Source: Escherichia coli (GTDB lineage Bacteria > Pseudomonadota > Gammaproteobacteria > Enterobacterales > Enterobacteriaceae). From it: a stretch of DNA of 27,104 bases. Below, in pieces: positions 14,366-23,254 of the stretch. The position numbers were made by a program, and so were the translations under genes. The notes under the pieces were generated by a model that saw nothing but the letters and a program-made list of their open reading frames with translations, ran no database searches and was not told where the DNA came from. Each line of letters begins with the position of its first letter. Position 1 is the first letter of the stretch. The stretch lies in assembly GCF_003334385.1 (NCBI RefSeq), contig NZ_QOWN01000059.1. The stretch is one strand, 5' to 3'.

Positions 14366-15052
14366 TTAGAAGTTCAGATTTTTCAGTGCATTCAGTGCAG
14401 AGCCCACATCCTCAGCGTCGCGCAGGGACAGTGCGCTATAGCCCCCGGCCATGAATGCTTTGGCCTGGGTGCGGGAGAGTCCGACATCACGCAGGACTCT
14501 TTCGATTTTTTTCTGTTCGGGGATTTCCCCGCGGGCCAGTGCGTTCTTGACGTCGCTGATCCGCGCCTCGTCGTTAGACGGGAACGTCACCAGGCTGACT
14601 TCCCAGAGGTCGATTTCTTTCAGCAGAAAGGCTTCTTTGCTCCGGTCGTATTCCCAGTCTTTCAGGACGTACCCAATAGAAAGGCCGGTTAACGAACCGG
14701 CCTTCATGTGTGCATGTGCGCGTTTTGCGAGGGGATCATCATCAATAAGCAACCGTCCCCTGACGTAAAGCCCGACATCGTCTTCCTTCATTTCGGTGTA
14801 AACACCGATGGGTTCATCCATGCGGTGCTGCCAGAGCAGCGCAGGTAACGCTTTTCTGTCACTCCACGCCCGCAGGGAAGCAGCAAATGCCCCGGACATC
14901 ACCACATCATCGTGGCTGTCCTTTACACCAAAGACGGAGCCATACCCTTCAAACTCACCGGAGTCACTGACAGATTTCAGACTCAGCGGTACATCAAGAC
15001 GTTGTTTCGTCTGCATTGGCGTTATCCTTCTGCTTACCGGCTTTACTGCCAT
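14366..15052 (-). CDS. Prohead protease, HK97 family
   Basis: 228-aa ORF between portal and capsid with the motif GYGSVFGVKDSHDDVVMSGAF. Confidence 0.8.
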   Translation of the reverse strand: MAVKPVSRRITPMQTKQRLDVPLSLKSVSDSGEFEGYGSVFGVKDSHDDVVMSGAFAASLRAWSDRKALPALLWQHRMDEPIGVYTEMKEDDVGLYVRGRLLIDDDPLAKRAHAHMKAGSLTGLSIGYVLKDWEYDRSKEAFLLKEIDLWEVSLVTFPSNDEARISDVKNALARGEIPEQKKIERVLRDVGLSRTQAKAFMAGGYSALSLRDAEDVGSALNALKNLNF

Positions 15053-16235
15053 CGGAGGGTTTCGTGGTCATGTTCATCGGTGTGAGATAGACATCACCAC
15101 CGGGACGCGGATTCATATCTTCCAGGTCGCGGCAGTCATTGGGAGAGTCAATTCCCCAGTTGATCCCGGTGGCGTAGGCTTCAAAACGGGACTTCATATC
15201 CCCGCGCAGTAACGCCCCGGCGTTAAATTTGGCGTAATAAACGCCCTGCTTACTTTTTCGTACCAGTCCGGTGTTGATCCGCTGTTCGATGCGGGTCAGA
15301 TACGGCACCAGTGAATAGTTGATAAATCCCAGCCCCAGCTCTTCGATATTGTTGAAGGTGGCGCGATCGGTGTTCTGCACCATGTGCAACGGCACCCGGA
15401 ACAGACGACAGATTTCTTCAAGCTGAAACTTGCGGGTTTCCAGGAACTGGCTGTCCTCGGCGTTCAGCGCCATCGACTTCCAGTCCAGCCCCATCTCAAG
15501 GATCATCGGGCGGTGAGCATTGCCAAGCCCGGTGTGACGCTCCTCAAAATCTTTCTTCAGGCGCTCATAAGCCTGATCTGACAGCGTCTGCTCTGTACGC
15601 AACACACCCGACGTCACCGCGCCATTGCTGAACAGTCTGGCCCCGTGCTCTTCGGTCGCAGCTGCCAGCGATATTGCCTCGCGGGCATAGGCGATGGGAT
15701 TCAGCCCCACCAGTCCGTCCAGCGTCAGCGTGCGCACATGCCAGATATCCTCCTGGCTCAGTACATCCGTGGAGCCATCCGGGAATGTGACCTGATAGAT
15801 CGGCTCCCAGCTACTGTTAAGCTTCGGTACCACACAGCCGGGATCGACGGGCAGCAGTTCAGCCACTTCGCCAAATGCTTTCACTTTGTAGGCGTAAAAG
15901 TTTCCCCGCAGGCACAGACAGGTGACCACCAGCTCCCAGAACTCCTGCGGCGTCATATAGCCATTGGGATGCGTGGAGATCAGTTTATGCAGACGTTCGC
16001 CGGTGGCTCTCTGTTTCAGGCTGCCGTTCAGGTGATACAGGTTGCAGGGCAACATCCCGACCGACTCCGCCAGCACCCTGACGCAGGAAAAAACCGCCGT
16101 CAGTCGCATGGCCCGCTGGCTGCTGATCTGCTTTCCGGTATAGGTGTCATATGACAGCCCGATAGCATCCGCCAGCTCTGCTGGCGTGGTCACCGGTGCG
16201 TCACTTTTTCGTTGAAATAATCCCGAAAAGAACAC
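14994..16235 (-). CDS. Portal protein, HK97 family
   Basis: 413-aa ORF after the large terminase and before the protease. Confidence 0.85.
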   Translation of the reverse strand: MFFSGLFQRKSDAPVTTPAELADAIGLSYDTYTGKQISSQRAMRLTAVFSCVRVLAESVGMLPCNLYHLNGSLKQRATGERLHKLISTHPNGYMTPQEFWELVVTCLCLRGNFYAYKVKAFGEVAELLPVDPGCVVPKLNSSWEPIYQVTFPDGSTDVLSQEDIWHVRTLTLDGLVGLNPIAYAREAISLAAATEEHGARLFSNGAVTSGVLRTEQTLSDQAYERLKKDFEERHTGLGNAHRPMILEMGLDWKSMALNAEDSQFLETRKFQLEEICRLFRVPLHMVQNTDRATFNNIEELGLGFINYSLVPYLTRIEQRINTGLVRKSKQGVYYAKFNAGALLRGDMKSRFEAYATGINWGIDSPNDCRDLEDMNPRPGGDVYLTPMNMTTKPSDGSKAGKQKDNANADETTS

Positions 16236-16417
16236 TATTTACCTCCGCCGACAGACGGCTGTGTACGGTCGAGATATCGCGCCACCAGCCACGACCAGAA
16301 CAGGCACAGCGCCCCGGCAACAACAAACCCCGCCGGGGGATAAATCAGCCAGGCACCATACGCCAGCAAAAGCGCACCCAGCACGCCCACCAGAGGCGCG
16401 AGAATCAGCATGATCAT
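16235..16417 (-). CDS. Small membrane protein (two predicted transmembrane helices) between terminase and portal
   Basis: 60-aa ORF ([49 protein letters not shown]...) fitting exactly between the terminase stop and the portal start. Confidence 0.45.
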
Positions 16418-16428
16418 AATTACCTCAG

Positions 16429-18162
16429 TTAAAGCGAGCGGATCCCATAGGATTCAATGTGGTCAGACAGCGTGTCTTCTTTCTCGTACAGCATGGCTCT
16501 GCCAACCGCCATAATCAGCGCAACTGCACCATCGATTTTGTTTTCCGCCTGCTCTTTGACGGGCTTCACCACATCATCGTTACCCGGAATGGTTTTGCCG
16601 ACCACGTTGCCGATACACCAGGTCATGATGGGATTGCCATCATGATGAAAGCGCCCCGATTCAATTGCCGCTTCCAGCTCTTTCATCGGGTCGGACATGT
16701 TGGTGTAGTTCTGAATGATGGTGACGGGGTTCAGGTCTTCATCAGCAAGGTCATGTGAGAGCCCGGTCGCCCCGAAGGGGTCGATGGGTGACTCGCTGAC
16801 CGGGCTGATTTTGTTCGCCGCTTTGGCCTCTTCGAGGATGTAGCGATAATCCACCTCTGCACCATCGGTAACGGTCAGGACGCCCATTTCCACCCATTTC
16901 TGAAAGCGTTCGGCTGTCCGTCGATCTTCATTTTTCTCGACGCTGTACACCGTGTCATACGGTACCCAGAAACGCGGGGCCACACTGTAGTAATGCGTTT
17001 TACCGTCAATCTCGCGGGTATAAAGTCGCGCCATGCTGTTCATATCCAGCTTACGCGCCAGGTCAAAGGCCAGAATGCACGGCTGCCCCTCGAACTGCTC
17101 AAGGGTCAGTGATTTATCCTCGCAGCTCTGCCAGCTTACCAGGTTGAAATACGCCGAACGCGCCGACACCCAGATATTGAGGTGTTTTGTTTTAAAGACG
17201 TTTGCCAGACGGGCGTTATTTTTCGCACGCTGCTGCTGACTTAACAAAAATTCGCGATAAACCGACACGCCAATATTTGGATTGGCTTTTTCCAGCACCT
17301 GCGGGTCGGTCCAGTCGTCACCTTCATCAACGGTATAGATGATCCCGAACAGTTCATCGTTGGGTACCGAACCGTTGAGCATCTCGATGACTTCCCGCCG
17401 TTTGTCGTAGCACGGCCCCTCAATGTTGTACCCGGCGGTAGTGATAGCCCACATCAGTGGCTGACGTCGCGCCCCCATCCCGGTAAGCATCGTGGTGTAA
17501 AGCGCATCTGTGGCGTGCTCGTGATATTCATCCACCACCGCACAGTGGGGTGATGAACCATCACCAGGGTTACCGATCAGCGGTTCAAAACGCGCACCAT
17601 CCTCCGGACGGTTCATGTTTGAGGCGTTAACCTCAATCCCGAACGCTTCCGTCAGCATGGGTGTGCGTTTACACATCAGTCGTGCCGGACGAAAGACTTC
17701 CCACGCCTGTTTCTCCGTCGTGGCACCGGAATACACTTCCGCGCCAAACTCGTTATCACAGGCAAAACAATACAGGGCAACACCGGCAGAGATTGCCGAT
17801 TTGCCGTTCTTACGGGGGATTTCGGTATACACCTCCCGGAAGCGGCGCAATCGGGAGCCTTTATTGACCCAGCCAAACGCACAGCAGATCACAAATAGCT
17901 GCCACGGCTCCAGCGTGATGGGCATCCGTTTAAATGCCCACTCACCCTTGGTGTGCGGCAACAGCTGAATAAATTTGGCGGCCCGTTCAGCCAGGTCCTT
18001 GTCGAAGCGGTAACGAAACGACTTACTTTTTTCCGCCATCAGGTCATCAAGATGGCGCTGGCAGGCCTGAATCACAAACTGGCAGGCCACAATCTTTCCG
18101 CGCACGACATCACGGGCATACTGATTGGCAGCATTTACGTTGGGGTAAGATTTCCGGCTCAT
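16429..18162 (-). CDS. Terminase large subunit
   Basis: 577-aa ORF with ATPase and nuclease character, flanked by small terminase and portal genes. Confidence 0.9.
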
Positions 18163-19207: not shown

Positions 19208-19897
19208 TTAAATCTTTGTTCGCTGATAATCAGCAGAATCAATTAAATTATACATACCATTCATATCATGCTCATAATGATATTCAGATTCATACGAATA
19301 CCCCAATATACTCTCATAAGTCAAAACGACCCGAAAATGTTCAGGCACATCTCCAGCATTTATTTTATTTTTAGGAAATTTAATTGCGCCATTGCTACTT
19401 CTAAAAAAATGCGAGCTATATTCCCCGATAGGAGGGTCAAAAGTTAAGCTTATATTTTTCGCTGTTTTACCATCACTAAATACCGACCAATTATACTCAT
19501 ACTGTTCACCACTTTTAACTGACCATCCCAGATTCAACATATATAGATCAGGCTTCGTTTCTTTTTCTCTTTCCAGCCTTTCTGTCATGGCTTTGATTGA
19601 TTCATTTTCTAATTGCTGTTTAGAAACGGAAACCATCTCTTTATATTGTTCGACTGAGTTTTTCAACTCAGTGGCTTGTAACTTTAACGCTTCAGTATTT
19701 TGCTGTAGTTCTTTTTGTTGCTGTAAATACCCAAGCACAAGCCAAAAAAAGGCCACTGGGGAAAATGCACCAGCAAGAAAATCTCCAAACTCATTCCACG
19801 ACGTCATCTGGTTCAAATCAAGAACATGGATCGTAATACCTAAGCCAAAGAAATAAACGACACTAACTAAAACACCGCACCCAAAAATTCTCATCAT
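19208..19897 (-). CDS. Hypothetical membrane protein with coiled coil (moron)
   Basis: Visibly AT-rich ORF with two hydrophobic helices at the N-terminus, a coiled-coil stretch (QQQKELQQNTEALKLQATELKNSVEQYKEMV...) and a Tyr/Glu-rich C-terminal domain. Start placed at the ATG preceded by GGGGAGAGA; the track ORF extends to 19921. Confidence 0.55.
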   Translation of the reverse strand: MMRIFGCGVLVSVVYFFGLGITIHVLDLNQMTSWNEFGDFLAGAFSPVAFFWLVLGYLQQQKELQQNTEALKLQATELKNSVEQYKEMVSVSKQQLENESIKAMTERLEREKETKPDLYMLNLGWSVKSGEQYEYNWSVFSDGKTAKNISLTFDPPIGEYSSHFFRSSNGAIKFPKNKINAGDVPEHFRVVLTYESILGYSYESEYHYEHDMNGMYNLIDSADYQRTKI

Positions 19898-19945
19898 TCT
19901 CTCCCCATTTGGAGAAAACATTTAACAACTGTCAAATAGTCAAGG

Positions 19946-20407
19946 TCAATGCAAACACTGCAACTTTACATACTCCTGCAAGTAGTTAACCTGCGCCGTT
20001 ATCTTGTCGATTCCACTTCGGAGACGGTAATAATTGAGTTCAGCATCTGCTGTAAGTCTTGGACTTTCTCCATCGCCCATGCCGCTGGCTCTGGTCGTTG
20101 ACTTTGCACAGGTGGCAGCGACTTGCAGGCGCTTACGCCCAGCAGAAACATCAGCACGGAGACTTTCGATAGTCGCGTTAGCATCAGCAAGCTCCTTTGT
20201 GTATCTGGCGTCAAGTTCTGCTACGTCACGTTGACGCTTCTGCATATCAGAGATGGTCGCCATAGCCGAATCTAATGCCATAGCATTCTCATCACGCTGC
20301 TTTTTGTATTCAATAGCTTTATTGTGGTAATGATTCACTGAACAGATAAAAGAACCAACGACAGAAACGAAGAAAACAGCGATAACCAGCTTATAGCTCA
20401 ACTTCAT
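19946..20407 (-). CDS. rz: Rz-type i-spanin
   Basis: 153-aa ORF with an N-terminal transmembrane helix and coiled coil, closely resembling lambda Rz (NHYHNKAIEYKKQRDENA...MQKRQRDVAELDARYTKELADA); overlaps the endolysin 3' end. Confidence 0.8.
   Translation of the reverse strand: MKLSYKLVIAVFFVSVVGSFICSVNHYHNKAIEYKKQRDENAMALDSAMATISDMQKRQRDVAELDARYTKELADANATIESLRADVSAGRKRLQVAATCAKSTTRASGMGDGESPRLTADAELNYYRLRSGIDKITAQVNYLQEYVKLQCLH
19999..20184 (-). CDS. rz1: Rz1-type o-spanin lipoprotein embedded in rz in the +1 frame
   Basis: Signal peptide with lipobox (MLTRLSKVSVLMFLLGVSAC) and a Pro-rich mature part, fully inside rz. Start chosen at the second Met; the track ORF extends to 20214. Confidence 0.7.
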   Translation of the reverse strand: MLTRLSKVSVLMFLLGVSACKSLPPVQSQRPEPAAWAMEKVQDLQQMLNSIITVSEVESTR

Positions 20408-20867
20408 TTACCACCCCACCAGCCTCTTTAAACCGGGCAATCAGGTCATCGATTTTATGTTCATACTGACCGTAACCCGCACCGGGTAACGACGCCCAGA
20501 TATTGCTGCAACGATCGATAGCCTGACGGATATCACCGCGATCAATCATCGGTAAAGCACCACGCTCTTTAATCTGCTGTAATGCCACTGAGTCCTGGCT
20601 TTTGGGAGAGAAGTCTTTCAGCCCAAGCTGCTTGCGGTAAGCATCCCACCAGCGTGAAAGAAGTTGATAACGGCCTGCAGCTGTTGATTTGAGTTTCGGG
20701 TTTAGCATGACAAGTTTACGAGGGTGATCGGAGTAATCAGTGAACAGTTCGCCACCGACAATAACATCATAACCATGATTTCTCGTTTTCTGCCGTCCGT
20801 TATCCGTTCCTTCTGACCATGCCACCATATCCAGGAAAGCTTTACGCTGGGAATTTAGTACCTGCAT
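20391..20867 (-). CDS. Endolysin, lambda R-type lytic transglycosylase
   Basis: 158-aa ORF nearly collinear with recalled lambda R (NSQRKAFLDMVAWSEGTDNGRQKTRNHGYDVIVGGELFTDYSDHPRKL...). Confidence 0.9.
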   Translation of the reverse strand: MQVLNSQRKAFLDMVAWSEGTDNGRQKTRNHGYDVIVGGELFTDYSDHPRKLVMLNPKLKSTAAGRYQLLSRWWDAYRKQLGLKDFSPKSQDSVALQQIKERGALPMIDRGDIRQAIDRCSNIWASLPGAGYGQYEHKIDDLIARFKEAGGVVNEVEL

Positions 20868-20870
20868 AAA

Positions 20871-21197
20871 TTACTCCTTAGAGCCACCAAACTTGTTACC
20901 GATTACTCTCATTGCAGCCCCACGAATAGCATCGACACCGATCAGCCCCACCCCACCACCAATGGCAACAGATAGTGATTTAGGCCATCCGACATACTCA
21001 AGAGCGGATGCAAAAGTCAGCGTCAGAGCACCACAGAGCAAAATCTCGAGCGTTTTTCGCTTCCAGCCACCACCACCGCCAAAATAGGCAATGCGCAAGC
21101 CAGCCATAACGATCGACATAATTACTGCGCCCAGCGGCGTGTCTCCACGCCACCAGCTCTGGACCAACTCCAGCCAGGTATTTGGGTTATGAGGCAT
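20871..21197 (-). CDS. Holin (putative)
   Basis: 108-aa hydrophobic protein with two to three predicted transmembrane segments, immediately upstream of the endolysin with a 4-nt gap. Confidence 0.6.
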   Translation of the reverse strand: MPHNPNTWLELVQSWWRGDTPLGAVIMSIVMAGLRIAYFGGGGGWKRKTLEILLCGALTLTFASALEYVGWPKSLSVAIGGGVGLIGVDAIRGAAMRVIGNKFGGSKE

Positions 21198-21475: not shown

Positions 21476-23254
21476 GTGAGTGAAATCAGAAAGTTAAAAG
21501 GGCTAATGAATACAAATGCTATTGAGCCGTTCATTCGCCATATACGGTTTCCGTATTTTAAAAATCTTGAAGAATATAGCACTATACATTTTCACTATCC
21601 TATTACTGCATTAGTTGGTCAAAATGGAACCAATAAAAGCTCAGTATTACGTGCATTATATGGTTCTCCAAATAATTATTCCTTAGGAAATCTTTGGTTT
21701 TCAACTGATCTAGACGAGATTAAAGATGGTGGTCGTTCTAGATTTATTTATGGATACTATGATTCCGCATCTAAAGATGTTGTTGAAGTAATAAAAACAA
21801 GGATTGTAGACAAGGAGGATCCTGATTTATGGGAAACTTCGAGACCTCTAACTAAAGATGGTATGAAAAAAATACCAACAGATATTATTTCGCCAAATCA
21901 GCAAAAATCACGCTGGAAACAGATAGACAAAATTGTCACATATATTGATTTTAGAGCTTCGATCAGTGCATTCGATAAATTCTTTTATCATTCGGACTTT
22001 GATCTTTATCCAAAGAAAAATCACCTGAGAAAAAGAAGCCATCTTCTTAAAGAGATAATAGATAAAGGCCTAACATCATACAAGCCCTTTAAAGGTAAAA
22101 AAGAAAGGTTGTATAAGAATGAATTACTTTCTCAAGAGAAGGTAGAAATCATCAGCGATATACTTGGTAGACCTTACAAAACAATTAGACTTATTGAGCA
22201 TGCCTTATTTACAAACAATAAGGCTTCAACCGTTATTTTAGAGTCTCATAGTCTCAACTACTCCGAGGCTTTTGCAGGAAGTGGGGAGTTTGCAGTAACT
22301 ATTCTCGTAAATCAAATTGTTAACGCGCCAACAGCATCATTAATTCTTTTAGATGAACCCGAAGTCTCACTTCATCCAGCAGCACAGTTTAAATTGATGT
22401 CTTTTCTAAATAAGATTTGCTTAAAAAACAAACATCAAATTGTTATTTCAACACACTCATCATCTATAGTTAGCCAACTACCTAAGGAAGCCATAAAACT
22501 TTTTAATCTTAATTCAAACTCAGGAAAAGTTAGTATAGTTGAAAACGTTAGCCCTGAGGAAGCTTTCTTTACGCTTGGAGACCGACTATCAAAAAAAACT
22601 ATCTTTGTAGAAGATAAACTGGCTAAAAAATTCGTTGAGAAGGCTTTAAAATCAGGAGGTCCTGCCCTAGCCAATACATTTGATGTTATATATTGCCCAG
22701 CTGGTGCAAGCACATTATTAGGTAATATGATTGTCTCATTATTTTTATCAAGAGTTGATAATGCGGTATTTTTATTGGATGGTGATCAGAAGACAAGCCA
22801 TGATTTCATTACATCAGCCTTAATACCAAGCAGTGAAGATAATTCTTTAAATGAAAAAATAAAAAATATTCTTGGGTGTGAAATTAAAATACCAACTGAT
22901 GGGCATGGTGGAACTCCAAATAAACAGCAGAAGATTCAACTTCAGCGTGATTTCATTGATTTTTCATATAATTATGTAGGGTATTTACCTATCATTAATC
23001 CAGAAACTTTTTTGATTGACAATCTTCCGGCTTTTTACTCCGATATGATTAAAGATTTAAACTTATCAAAACTATCACCAAAATCAATAATTGCAGAAAT
23101 ATGTAAAAGAGACATAGAAAATAACGTTATAACTTCGGATGATATTTTCGCAACACAAATCAGGATACTAACCCGAATACCTGAGAATCATGTCGCATTT
23201 TCTGAAACGAGAGAAATGCTGAAATTTTTCCTTGAACATGGTAAGATAAGATAA
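21476..23254 (+). CDS. ABC-type ATPase with C-terminal TOPRIM-like nuclease domain (OLD/PARIS/Gabija-like architecture)
   Basis: 592-aa ORF. Walker A GQNGTNKSS (residues 48-56), Walker B LILLDEPE (289-296), H-loop ISTHS (324-328), then TOPRIM-like FVED (E379) and LLDGDQ (D435, D437). Visibly AT-rich. Start may be the GTG at 21476 or the ATG at 21506. Confidence 0.7.
   Translation: MSEIRKLKGLMNTNAIEPFIRHIRFPYFKNLEEYSTIHFHYPITALVGQNGTNKSSVLRALYGSPNNYSLGNLWFSTDLDEIKDGGRSRFIYGYYDSASKDVVEVIKTRIVDKEDPDLWETSRPLTKDGMKKIPTDIISPNQQKSRWKQIDKIVTYIDFRASISAFDKFFYHSDFDLYPKKNHLRKRSHLLKEIIDKGLTSYKPFKGKKERLYKNELLSQEKVEIISDILGRPYKTIRLIEHALFTNNKASTVILESHSLNYSEAFAGSGEFAVTILVNQIVNAPTASLILLDEPEVSLHPAAQFKLMSFLNKICLKNKHQIVISTHSSSIVSQLPKEAIKLFNLNSNSGKVSIVENVSPEEAFFTLGDRLSKKTIFVEDKLAKKFVEKALKSGGPALANTFDVIYCPAGASTLLGNMIVSLFLSRVDNAVFLLDGDQKTSHDFITSALIPSSEDNSLNEKIKNILGCEIKIPTDGHGGTPNKQQKIQLQRDFIDFSYNYVGYLPIINPETFLIDNLPAFYSDMIKDLNLSKLSPKSIIAEICKRDIENNVITSDDIFATQIRILTRIPENHVAFSETREMLKFFLEHGKIR

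Follow-up and report, generated by a model that had tools for sequence, protein, structure and literature searches.

The window analysed here is a stretch of 27,104 nucleotides of Escherichia coli DNA (RefSeq assembly GCF_003334385.1, contig NZ_QOWN01000059.1), and the gene under study is ymfR, which encodes a hydrophobic protein of 60 residues and sits between the genes for the large terminase subunit (terL) and the portal protein. The host element is an SfV/e14-type prophage with an HK97-type head module, of which ymfR is a protein-coding late gene. The junction comprises the following features, numbered from the first letter of the window.

16429..18162, minus strand: large terminase gene, immediately upstream of ymfR (PHROG 9, E = 1.5e-197)
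16422..16426, minus strand: GAGGT, Shine-Dalgarno sequence for ymfR (sequence reading)
16235..16417, minus strand: ymfR coding sequence, 60 codons plus TAG (open reading frame list and translation; PHROG 502, E = 1.7e-28)
16343..16414, minus strand: first predicted transmembrane helix (TM1), codons 2-25, with small residues G11, G14 and G21 (hydropathy; AlphaFold2 helix 2-25)
16328..16342, minus strand: tight turn YPPAG, codons 26-30, predicted to face the periplasm (alignments)
16271..16327, minus strand: second predicted transmembrane helix (TM2), codons 31-49 (hydropathy; AlphaFold2 helix 27-52)
16238..16270, minus strand: basic, predicted cytoplasmic tail, codons 50-60, poorly conserved and ending in GG[KED] (ratio of nonsynonymous to synonymous substitution rates, dN/dS; alignment; predicted local distance difference test, pLDDT)
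16241..16246, minus strand: GGAGGT, Shine-Dalgarno sequence of the portal gene, within ymfR codons 57-58 (Gly-Gly) (sequence reading)
16233..16237, minus strand: TAGTG, one-base overlap of the ymfR stop and the portal GTG start (sequence reading)
14994..16235, minus strand: HK97-family portal gene, immediately downstream, N-terminus MFFSGLFQRK (PHROG 12, E = 6.5e-144; TIGR01537)

The initial annotation had drawn attention to a strongly hydrophobic open reading frame (ORF) of 60 residues that fills the gap between the packaging and portal genes, and in this it was accurate: the coordinates are exact, the grand average of hydropathy (GRAVY) is 1.20 over two hydrophobic stretches, and the frame is separated from its neighbours by an 11-nucleotide spacer on one side and a one-base stop/start overlap on the other. 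On the minus strand, translation starts at the ATG at 16417 and ends at the TAG at 16237..16235. The upstream junction reads TAA CTGAGGTAATT ATG (terL stop, spacer, ymfR start), and its spacer (16418..16428) carries the GAGGT Shine-Dalgarno sequence. The junction with the portal gene reads GGC GGA GGT AAA TAG TG, placing the GGAGGT of the portal gene inside the 3' end of ymfR, a layout that recurs in relatives. The conserved Gly-Gly near the C-terminus of YmfR arises because this Shine-Dalgarno sequence is read as codons; the Gly-Gly-(Lys/Glu/Asp) ending of enterobacterial YmfR proteins (16238..16246) is a constraint at the nucleotide level and not protein conservation proper.

By these junctions, translation of ymfR is coupled both to that of terL before it and to that of the portal gene after it, and ymfR is read from the late operon. 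The portal protein scores 255 bits against TIGR01537 (portal_HK97; cutoff 112, E = 8e-76). The portal gene is followed by the prohead protease gene and then the major capsid gene, and the genes for the small terminase subunit and an HNH endonuclease lie further upstream of terL.

Identity, coding evidence and predicted topology

By its sequence, the ORF is ymfR, a gene already named and catalogued (ymfR / PHROG 502). A 901-nucleotide query around it is 100% identical to a locus in E. coli NT1F25, where RefSeq lists 'protein YmfR' (WP_000605605.1) between 'terminase large subunit' and 'phage portal protein', and 97.8% identical to ymfR of K-12 MG1655. The region is present in 1577 of 5426 complete E. 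coli genomes (~29%). In the defective K-12 prophage e14, ymfR is intact and flanked by a terminase remnant and a portal remnant, whereas the head module in the window is whole. Cultured phages that carry the gene include SfI, SfII, SfIV, ST64B, phiP27, PY54, phiKO2 (as Gp3) and YeP1-3, together with Azospirillum phage Cd and Marinobacter phage AS1; in phage records the homologue is labelled hypothetical, membrane protein or 'head-tail joining protein W'. Two database entries place an E. coli-type ymfR (protein 94-100% identical) in Gram-positive company and are probably mislabelled or contaminated: OR844959.1, 'Enterococcus phage Efm 3-10' (1764 nucleotides), and a metagenome-assembled genome (MAG) contig of a 'Bacillota bacterium' (L197; gene identical to the E. 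coli type).

Database searches with YmfR returned one informative family. The match to PHROG 502, a family annotated as 'membrane protein', covers residues 1-55 on profile positions 3-57 of 58, and ten distant relatives match the same family, which PHROGs files under 'moron, auxiliary metabolic gene and host takeover'. Against Pfam-A nothing was found at E <= 0.001, the best hits being generic transmembrane families, and there was no NCBIfam match and no sequence-profile match in the PDB. A Foldseek search of the structural model against the PDB was uninformative, returning only V-ATPase subunit e at E = 4.5. In PADLOC-DB no family matched YmfR at E <= 1, and two relatives gave only chance-level matches to LeoBC (E = 0.09-0.64). 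A literature search that covered ymfR, PHROG 502 and small membrane proteins at the terminase-portal junction found no paper on function; the mentions of ymfR retrieved are limited to gene lists, a neutral integration site, a match in an ASKA screen and a transcriptome table.

The initial annotation had proposed conservation of the frame in related prophages as a check, and the frame is indeed kept. Among 43 distinct enterobacterial alleles, dN/dS is 0.29 over codons 1-46 and 0.61 in the tail, values that are descriptive, the allele pairs being non-independent. The annotated frame has the lowest dN/dS of all six (0.39 overall). A 78-residue antisense ORF (16196..16432, plus strand) was set aside as a shadow frame: the three antisense frames, of which it occupies one, give 0.59-1.55 versus 0.39 for ymfR. 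A profile search of 1.84 billion cluster representatives recovered 378 clusters (50% identity) at E <= 1e-3, nearly all of 45-90 residues, and a word-indexed search recovered at least 1764 clusters at 90% identity. A core pattern G..G..L, together with a motif centred on the turn, is common to all family members.

The small two-helix membrane protein described initially is also what hydropathy and structure prediction both indicate. In YmfR, the YPPAG sequence stands between the two hydrophobic stretches, and an AlphaFold2 model built from a 73-sequence alignment predicts helices at residues 2-25 and 27-52 with a mean pLDDT of 81.7. The tail is floppy in the model (pLDDT 62 in the last block) and variable in a separate alignment except for the terminal GG. 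In the 73-sequence alignment, G14 and G21 of TM1 are at least 90% conserved and G35 of TM2 is invariant, and the YPPAG turn forms the centre of the family's most conserved motif. Lys or Arg occurs in the turn loop of 5% of family members, in the C-terminal tail of 93% and in N-terminal extensions of 50%, these being rough counts with positions placed by regular expression. Because basic residues are scarce in the turn and common in the tail, the hairpin is predicted to have cytoplasmic N- and C-termini and to place its conserved turn at the periplasmic face of the inner membrane.

Tandem duplications of the hairpin were also observed (P0151, P0170, P0179 and P0214): these proteins have 102-122 residues, four predicted helices and the motif twice, and at the P0170 locus (L005, 64..399) the downstream gene overlaps the duplicated-hairpin gene. 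Such duplications are consistent with a unit that acts as an oligomer.

Placement and inheritance of the gene

The position of ymfR is constant. In bacterial assemblies sampled at one genome per species, the order terL-ymfR-portal, continuing into protease and capsid genes, was found in 23 of 23 loci. These span Sphingopyxis, Reyranella, Sulfitobacter, Bradyrhizobium, Rhizobium, Rhodoferax, Lysobacterales, Mangrovibacter, Edwardsiella, Providencia and Citrobacter, three Ruminococcaceae MAGs (L181, L182, L189) and Streptomyces sp. NRRL F-2664 (L199). The Streptomyces gene (2833..3117 of its contig) and the Ruminococcaceae members encode the motif WLIYPPA(G/S)FIVGG and have the portal-protease-capsid block directly downstream; a recognised terL precedes the homologue in the Ruminococcaceae loci but not in Streptomyces. 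With members in contigs of these two groups, restriction of the family to Gram-negative hosts was dropped, and the hosts now comprise alpha-, beta- and gammaproteobacteria, Ruminococcaceae and Streptomyces.

A broader locus set (n = 167) comprised 160 viral contigs and seven loci from four metagenome and assembly look-ups. A scan of viral contigs with the enterobacterial alignment had given only loci of 98-100% identity, and distant members were used instead; an alignment of 64 distant members proved too divergent to yield a pattern. Of 166 family ORFs from viral and metagenome loci, 129 had both a recognisable terL upstream and a recognisable portal gene downstream, the remainder being mostly on truncated contigs or beside neighbours too divergent for ad hoc profiles. 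Apparent neighbours of the small terminase, protease or major capsid class were traced to truncated contigs or unrecognised, divergent terL and portal genes, and are not other contexts; likewise, a 259-residue 'fusion' (L122) is an artefact of longest-ORF calling, which over-extends family ORFs in high-GC contigs. Distant members that were examined individually have a PF03354/PF20441 terminase directly before the gene and a PF04860 portal after it, and at nearly all related loci the stop codon overlaps the portal start (-1 or -4).

Sequence divergence follows the same neighbours. Across 82 non-redundant modules, identity of the YmfR core correlates with portal identity (Spearman 0.71), the corresponding value for terL and portal being 0.55. 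Where portals are less than 40% identical and terminases about 26-28% identical, the YmfR core is still about 41% identical. The gene has thus long resided between terL and portal in one large lineage of HK97-type head modules that spans several phyla, and it ranks among the most stably placed small genes of such modules. It is absent from other head-module lineages, including that of HK97 itself.

How often a hairpin occupies this slot was estimated from 21 phage records sampled at even steps down a tblastn ranking with the window's portal (1481 records, E <= 1e-20). In 8 of the 21, a hydrophobic hairpin ORF of 46-67 residues lies between terL and the portal gene and overlaps them (Vibrio phages K231 and H8, Salmonella F1055, Burkholderia phiBtTUL1a, Stutzerimonas PG1, Ralstonia Dina, Morganella IME1369_02 and E. 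coli vB_EcoS-716R1). The other 13 lack it: the HK97-like mEp234, Serratia OS31, Bacillus McSteamy, Streptococcus Javan105, Acinetobacter AbIPP1, Moraxella Mcat27, Pseudomonas phi2 and CF121c, Rhizobium, Sinorhizobium and Labrenzia phages, and Vibrio 1271 and NatCom_43819. Seven of the eight slot proteins were scanned against PHROGs and fall into PHROG 502, 7105 or 4810, families with weak cross-matches among themselves; the vB_EcoS-716R1 protein was compared only with the YmfR family profile.

The members of PHROG 7105 and 4810 (Salmonella F1055 gp3, Ralstonia Dina gp25 and the proteins of Morganella IME1369_02, Vibrio K231 and H8) resemble YmfR in being hydrophobic hairpins in the same slot with weak matches to PHROG 502 and to the YmfR family profile. 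They differ in lacking the YGAW..YPPAG motif and in loops that often contain Lys or Gln (YLKFG, HLQFG), and their homology to YmfR is marginal. A small hairpin gene in the terL-portal slot is common, though optional. The statement that packaging and portal genes are usually adjacent therefore holds only in part, since 8 of the 21 sampled phages have a hairpin between them, and the same count does not bear out the view that such an ORF is unusual for a structural region. In lambda, too, a small gene, W, sits between A (large terminase) and B (portal).

The initial annotation had further suggested a moron-like addition. A moron is expressed on its own from the prophage. Its usual marks are an own promoter and terminator, deviant composition and patchy presence among close relatives; in each of these marks ymfR differs. 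A consensus scan, itself a weak test, found no promoter- or terminator-like site flanking the gene. GC content at third codon positions is 0.69 in ymfR, 0.64 in terL and 0.68 in the portal gene, the low-GC inserts of the window lying elsewhere (19.2-19.9 kb and 21.5-23.3 kb), and absence of ymfR was seen only in distantly related head modules. When K-12 was exposed to an SOS-inducing siderophore conjugate, ymfR mRNA rose (log2 fold change 4.5) together with lytic genes of e14, its companions being ymfJ/L/M/Q, xisE, tfaP and pinE (PMC10012262). Replacement of ymfR was reported by the authors of another study to be phenotypically neutral for the host (PMC9145139). Because of the fixed synteny, the neighbour-like composition, the lack of detected signals of its own, the co-induction and the neutral replacement, the moron-like reading is rejected, as is that of a recent insert; coupling to both neighbours and divergence that tracks the portal point the same way. 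As a gene, nothing at these coordinates is new, and the useful result is this correction.

Other parts of the window do deviate in composition. A 592-residue ORF (21476..23254, plus strand) lies on the strand opposite to the late genes in an island of GC 0.32-0.37. It contains a Walker A motif (GQNGTNKS) and a Walker B motif (LILLDEPE), and its PADLOC matches are HEC-04 (1e-34) and ATPase-Toprim_I-B (2e-27), with weaker ones to PtuA, AriA, GajA and Old ATPases. From these matches, it is a candidate anti-phage defence gene of the moron type. NT1F25, the closest E. coli record, is annotated differently in this region, and the window is therefore mosaic relative to NT1F25. A second composition-deviant insert, an ORF of 237 residues (19208..19921, minus strand; GC ~0.36), lies between a spanin-like gene and the HNH endonuclease gene; its product begins with two hydrophobic segments, after which comes a coiled-coil-like region, and it has no PADLOC match. 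A GC dip to 0.40-0.43 at 6001..7200 falls inside the tail-gene block, and near this place the closest record has a 'hypothetical protein' between the tape-measure and DNA-circularisation genes.

Possible roles at the inner membrane

The presence of a conserved membrane protein in the packaging/portal operon suggests that assembly of these very well studied capsids includes a membrane-linked step that has gone unrecognised. The reading that we tentatively favour, as a possibility by no means assured, is that YmfR is a membrane-side accessory of portal nucleation or packaging. The role is suggested because synthesis of YmfR keeps pace with that of the low-copy portal and terminase proteins, with which it is also inherited. 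YmfR would act in the lytic cycle, embedded in the membrane, either at the portal or in packaging. The small-residue faces of its helices may let it oligomerise into an inner-membrane platform, on which the portal, or else the nascent late mRNA/protein complex, could be held or nucleated. Because related modules do without the gene, it would be dispensable in principle for capsid formation. Inheritance with portal and terL across very different envelopes makes a partner that is phage-internal or universal more likely than a target specific to the host. There is precedent for portal initiation at a membrane: in T4, the gp20 portal dodecamer forms on the inner membrane with gp40 and YidC (PMC9958956, PMC4493910), and membrane-bound portal initiation has been described for SPN3US (PMC9026906).

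Several observations weigh against a portal or packaging accessory. The cytoplasm-exposed parts of YmfR are tiny and include its least conserved segment (the tail, with its dN/dS of 0.61), and conservation is strongest at the end predicted to be periplasmic, not at the side where contact with the portal would be expected. Head modules without the gene work, among them those of the HK97-like mEp234, AbIPP1, McSteamy and others. Searches of Pfam, NCBIfam, PADLOC and the PDB linked YmfR to no characterised protein, whether by sequence or by fold, and the expression data are limited to mRNA from a defective prophage. Moreover, membrane-bound prohead initiation has been described as a peculiarity of T4-like phages and not of HK97-like ones (PMC4493910). 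Head assembly in HK97-like phages is not known to depend on a membrane.

One lead concerns the portal itself. A hydrophobic N-terminal stub of the form M-phi-phi-x-x-phi-phi was found in 8 of 9 portals encoded after a hairpin gene versus 3 of 13 without one (Fisher 0.0075), by a criterion that was set post hoc on a small sample and with a test that ignores phylogeny; these limits, and the three hairpin-less portals that carry the stub, add to the points against a portal accessory. Portal starts were examined in the window (codons 1-8 at 16214..16235) and at loci L169-L176, L203 and L208; examples are MFFSGLF, MFLSKLL, MLIDAIF and MIFDRLF, often with basic residues next. The association is a weak lead for a portal-docking role. 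A more specific proposal, that the hairpins of PHROG 502 (and probably 7105/4810) form an oligomeric inner-membrane platform that docks or nucleates the HK97-type portal, perhaps via the stub MFFxGLF, is quite unlikely as it stands. If true, however, temperate HK97-like phages from several phyla would widely start prohead assembly at the membrane, by means of a dedicated but overlooked protein of 50-70 residues.

Small phage membrane proteins of the exclusion type, such as HK97 gp15 and T4 Imm, suggest another reading, raised already in the initial annotation, in which YmfR is a membrane effector; it would block entry of superinfecting-phage DNA or alter a host membrane protein. With its best conserved residues at the predicted periplasmic end, this small inner-membrane hairpin would be well placed to meet incoming tape-measure or ejection proteins, or host transporters at their outer faces; PHROGs also assigns family 502 to its moron/host-takeover category, and related head modules dispense with the gene. 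However, the features that argue against a moron argue here as well: no promoter or terminator of its own was detected, its composition is neighbour-like and it is coupled inside the late operon. Its slot beside terL and the portal gene is fixed in hosts of several phyla whose envelopes differ greatly (Streptomyces and Ruminococcaceae among them), unlike the slots of host-specific morons, and no PADLOC family matches. Transcript levels follow prophage induction (PMC10012262), and deletion of ymfR gave no host phenotype according to its authors (PMC9145139). On balance, an effector role is unlikely, if still worth keeping in view.

Conservation of the motif across phyla, which suggests a universal or phage-encoded partner, would also suit a protein that modulates YidC, Sec or FtsH or is their client, or one that tethers the terL-portal-capsid mRNA co-translationally to the membrane (transertion) and so localises head assembly without touching the portal. 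Short-loop hairpins of the YmfR type are typical YidC substrates. YidC also takes part in T4 portal initiation (PMC9958956). This reading is purely inferential, and a pure tether needs no strongly conserved motif; we regard it as improbable.

Its architecture also invites comparison with lysis proteins, and YmfR could in principle be a holin-, pinholin- or antiholin-like hairpin that tunes permeabilisation or the timing of lysis, possibly in connection with head-gene expression. It is a late gene product with two transmembrane helices, glycine-rich helix faces, a predicted N-in/C-in topology and a short basic C-terminal tail as in class II holins. However, ymfR lies outside the lysis cassette, the prophage having its own lambda-family holin, endolysin and spanin genes at ~19946..21197, 3.5 kb away, and its portal-adjacent position is kept wherever lysis genes lie. 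No holin family in Pfam matches, the best score being that of a single alignment member against Phage_holin_10 (0.023), and a viable ASKA overexpression clone was recovered in a screen (PMC10299036), which is weak evidence against strong lethality. A function in lysis is very doubtful.

Finally, a non-functional ORF, arising by chance or as a spacer whose translation merely couples terL and portal, would fit the very short length and final codons constrained by the portal's Shine-Dalgarno sequence and start, but it is effectively refuted, and essentially excluded, by the conservation data: the motif is kept in hundreds of divergent clusters with more synonymous than nonsynonymous change, the core is better conserved than terL or portal at large distances, and tandem-duplicated, four-helix versions occur.

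Comparison with known systems

The closest counterparts of the window's gene are ymfR of K-12 e14, phiKO2 Gp3 and the ORFs annotated as 'putative integral membrane protein' in phiP27, SfII and ST64B. All are the same gene: their sequences are identical or nearly so, their length is equal, and they too lie between terL and portal. The question of what YmfR does is tractable in such phages, namely SfV-like phages, ST64B, phiP27 and phiKO2.

Prophage morons such as HK97 gp15 resemble YmfR in being small inner-membrane proteins encoded in the late structural region; the differences in expression signals, composition and distribution have been given above. Class II holins and pinholins, for example S21 of phage 21, share with it small size, two transmembrane helices, predicted N-in/C-in topology, glycine-rich faces and a basic C-terminus. 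YmfR differs from them in having no holin-family match and in lying outside the lysis cassette of a prophage that encodes its own holin.

In lambda, W is likewise a small gene that maps, as ymfR does, between those for the large terminase (A) and the portal (B). Its product, gpW, is a soluble head-completion protein. Identity of YmfR with gpW was rejected, YmfR being a hydrophobic hairpin with no Pfam match, the gpW family included, and the label 'head-tail joining protein W' in phage records is a positional mis-annotation. Records with this label (ON470580, ON470603, ON470584 and PQ793804) appear to have received it on the basis of position and size.

The T4 head module does not follow the HK97 type in the order of its genes, and genes 40 and 20 are not neighbours. 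The likeness between T4 and the role proposed here for YmfR, that of a membrane-side accessory of the portal or packaging step, is one of functional analogy: in each case a phage-encoded accessory and the inner membrane would come together at the start of head assembly, in T4 through gp40 and YidC acting on the gp20 portal. No sequence relation between gp40 and YmfR was found, YmfR and ten relatives matching only PHROG 502/7105, families that bear no functional name, in searches that did not compare gp40 directly.

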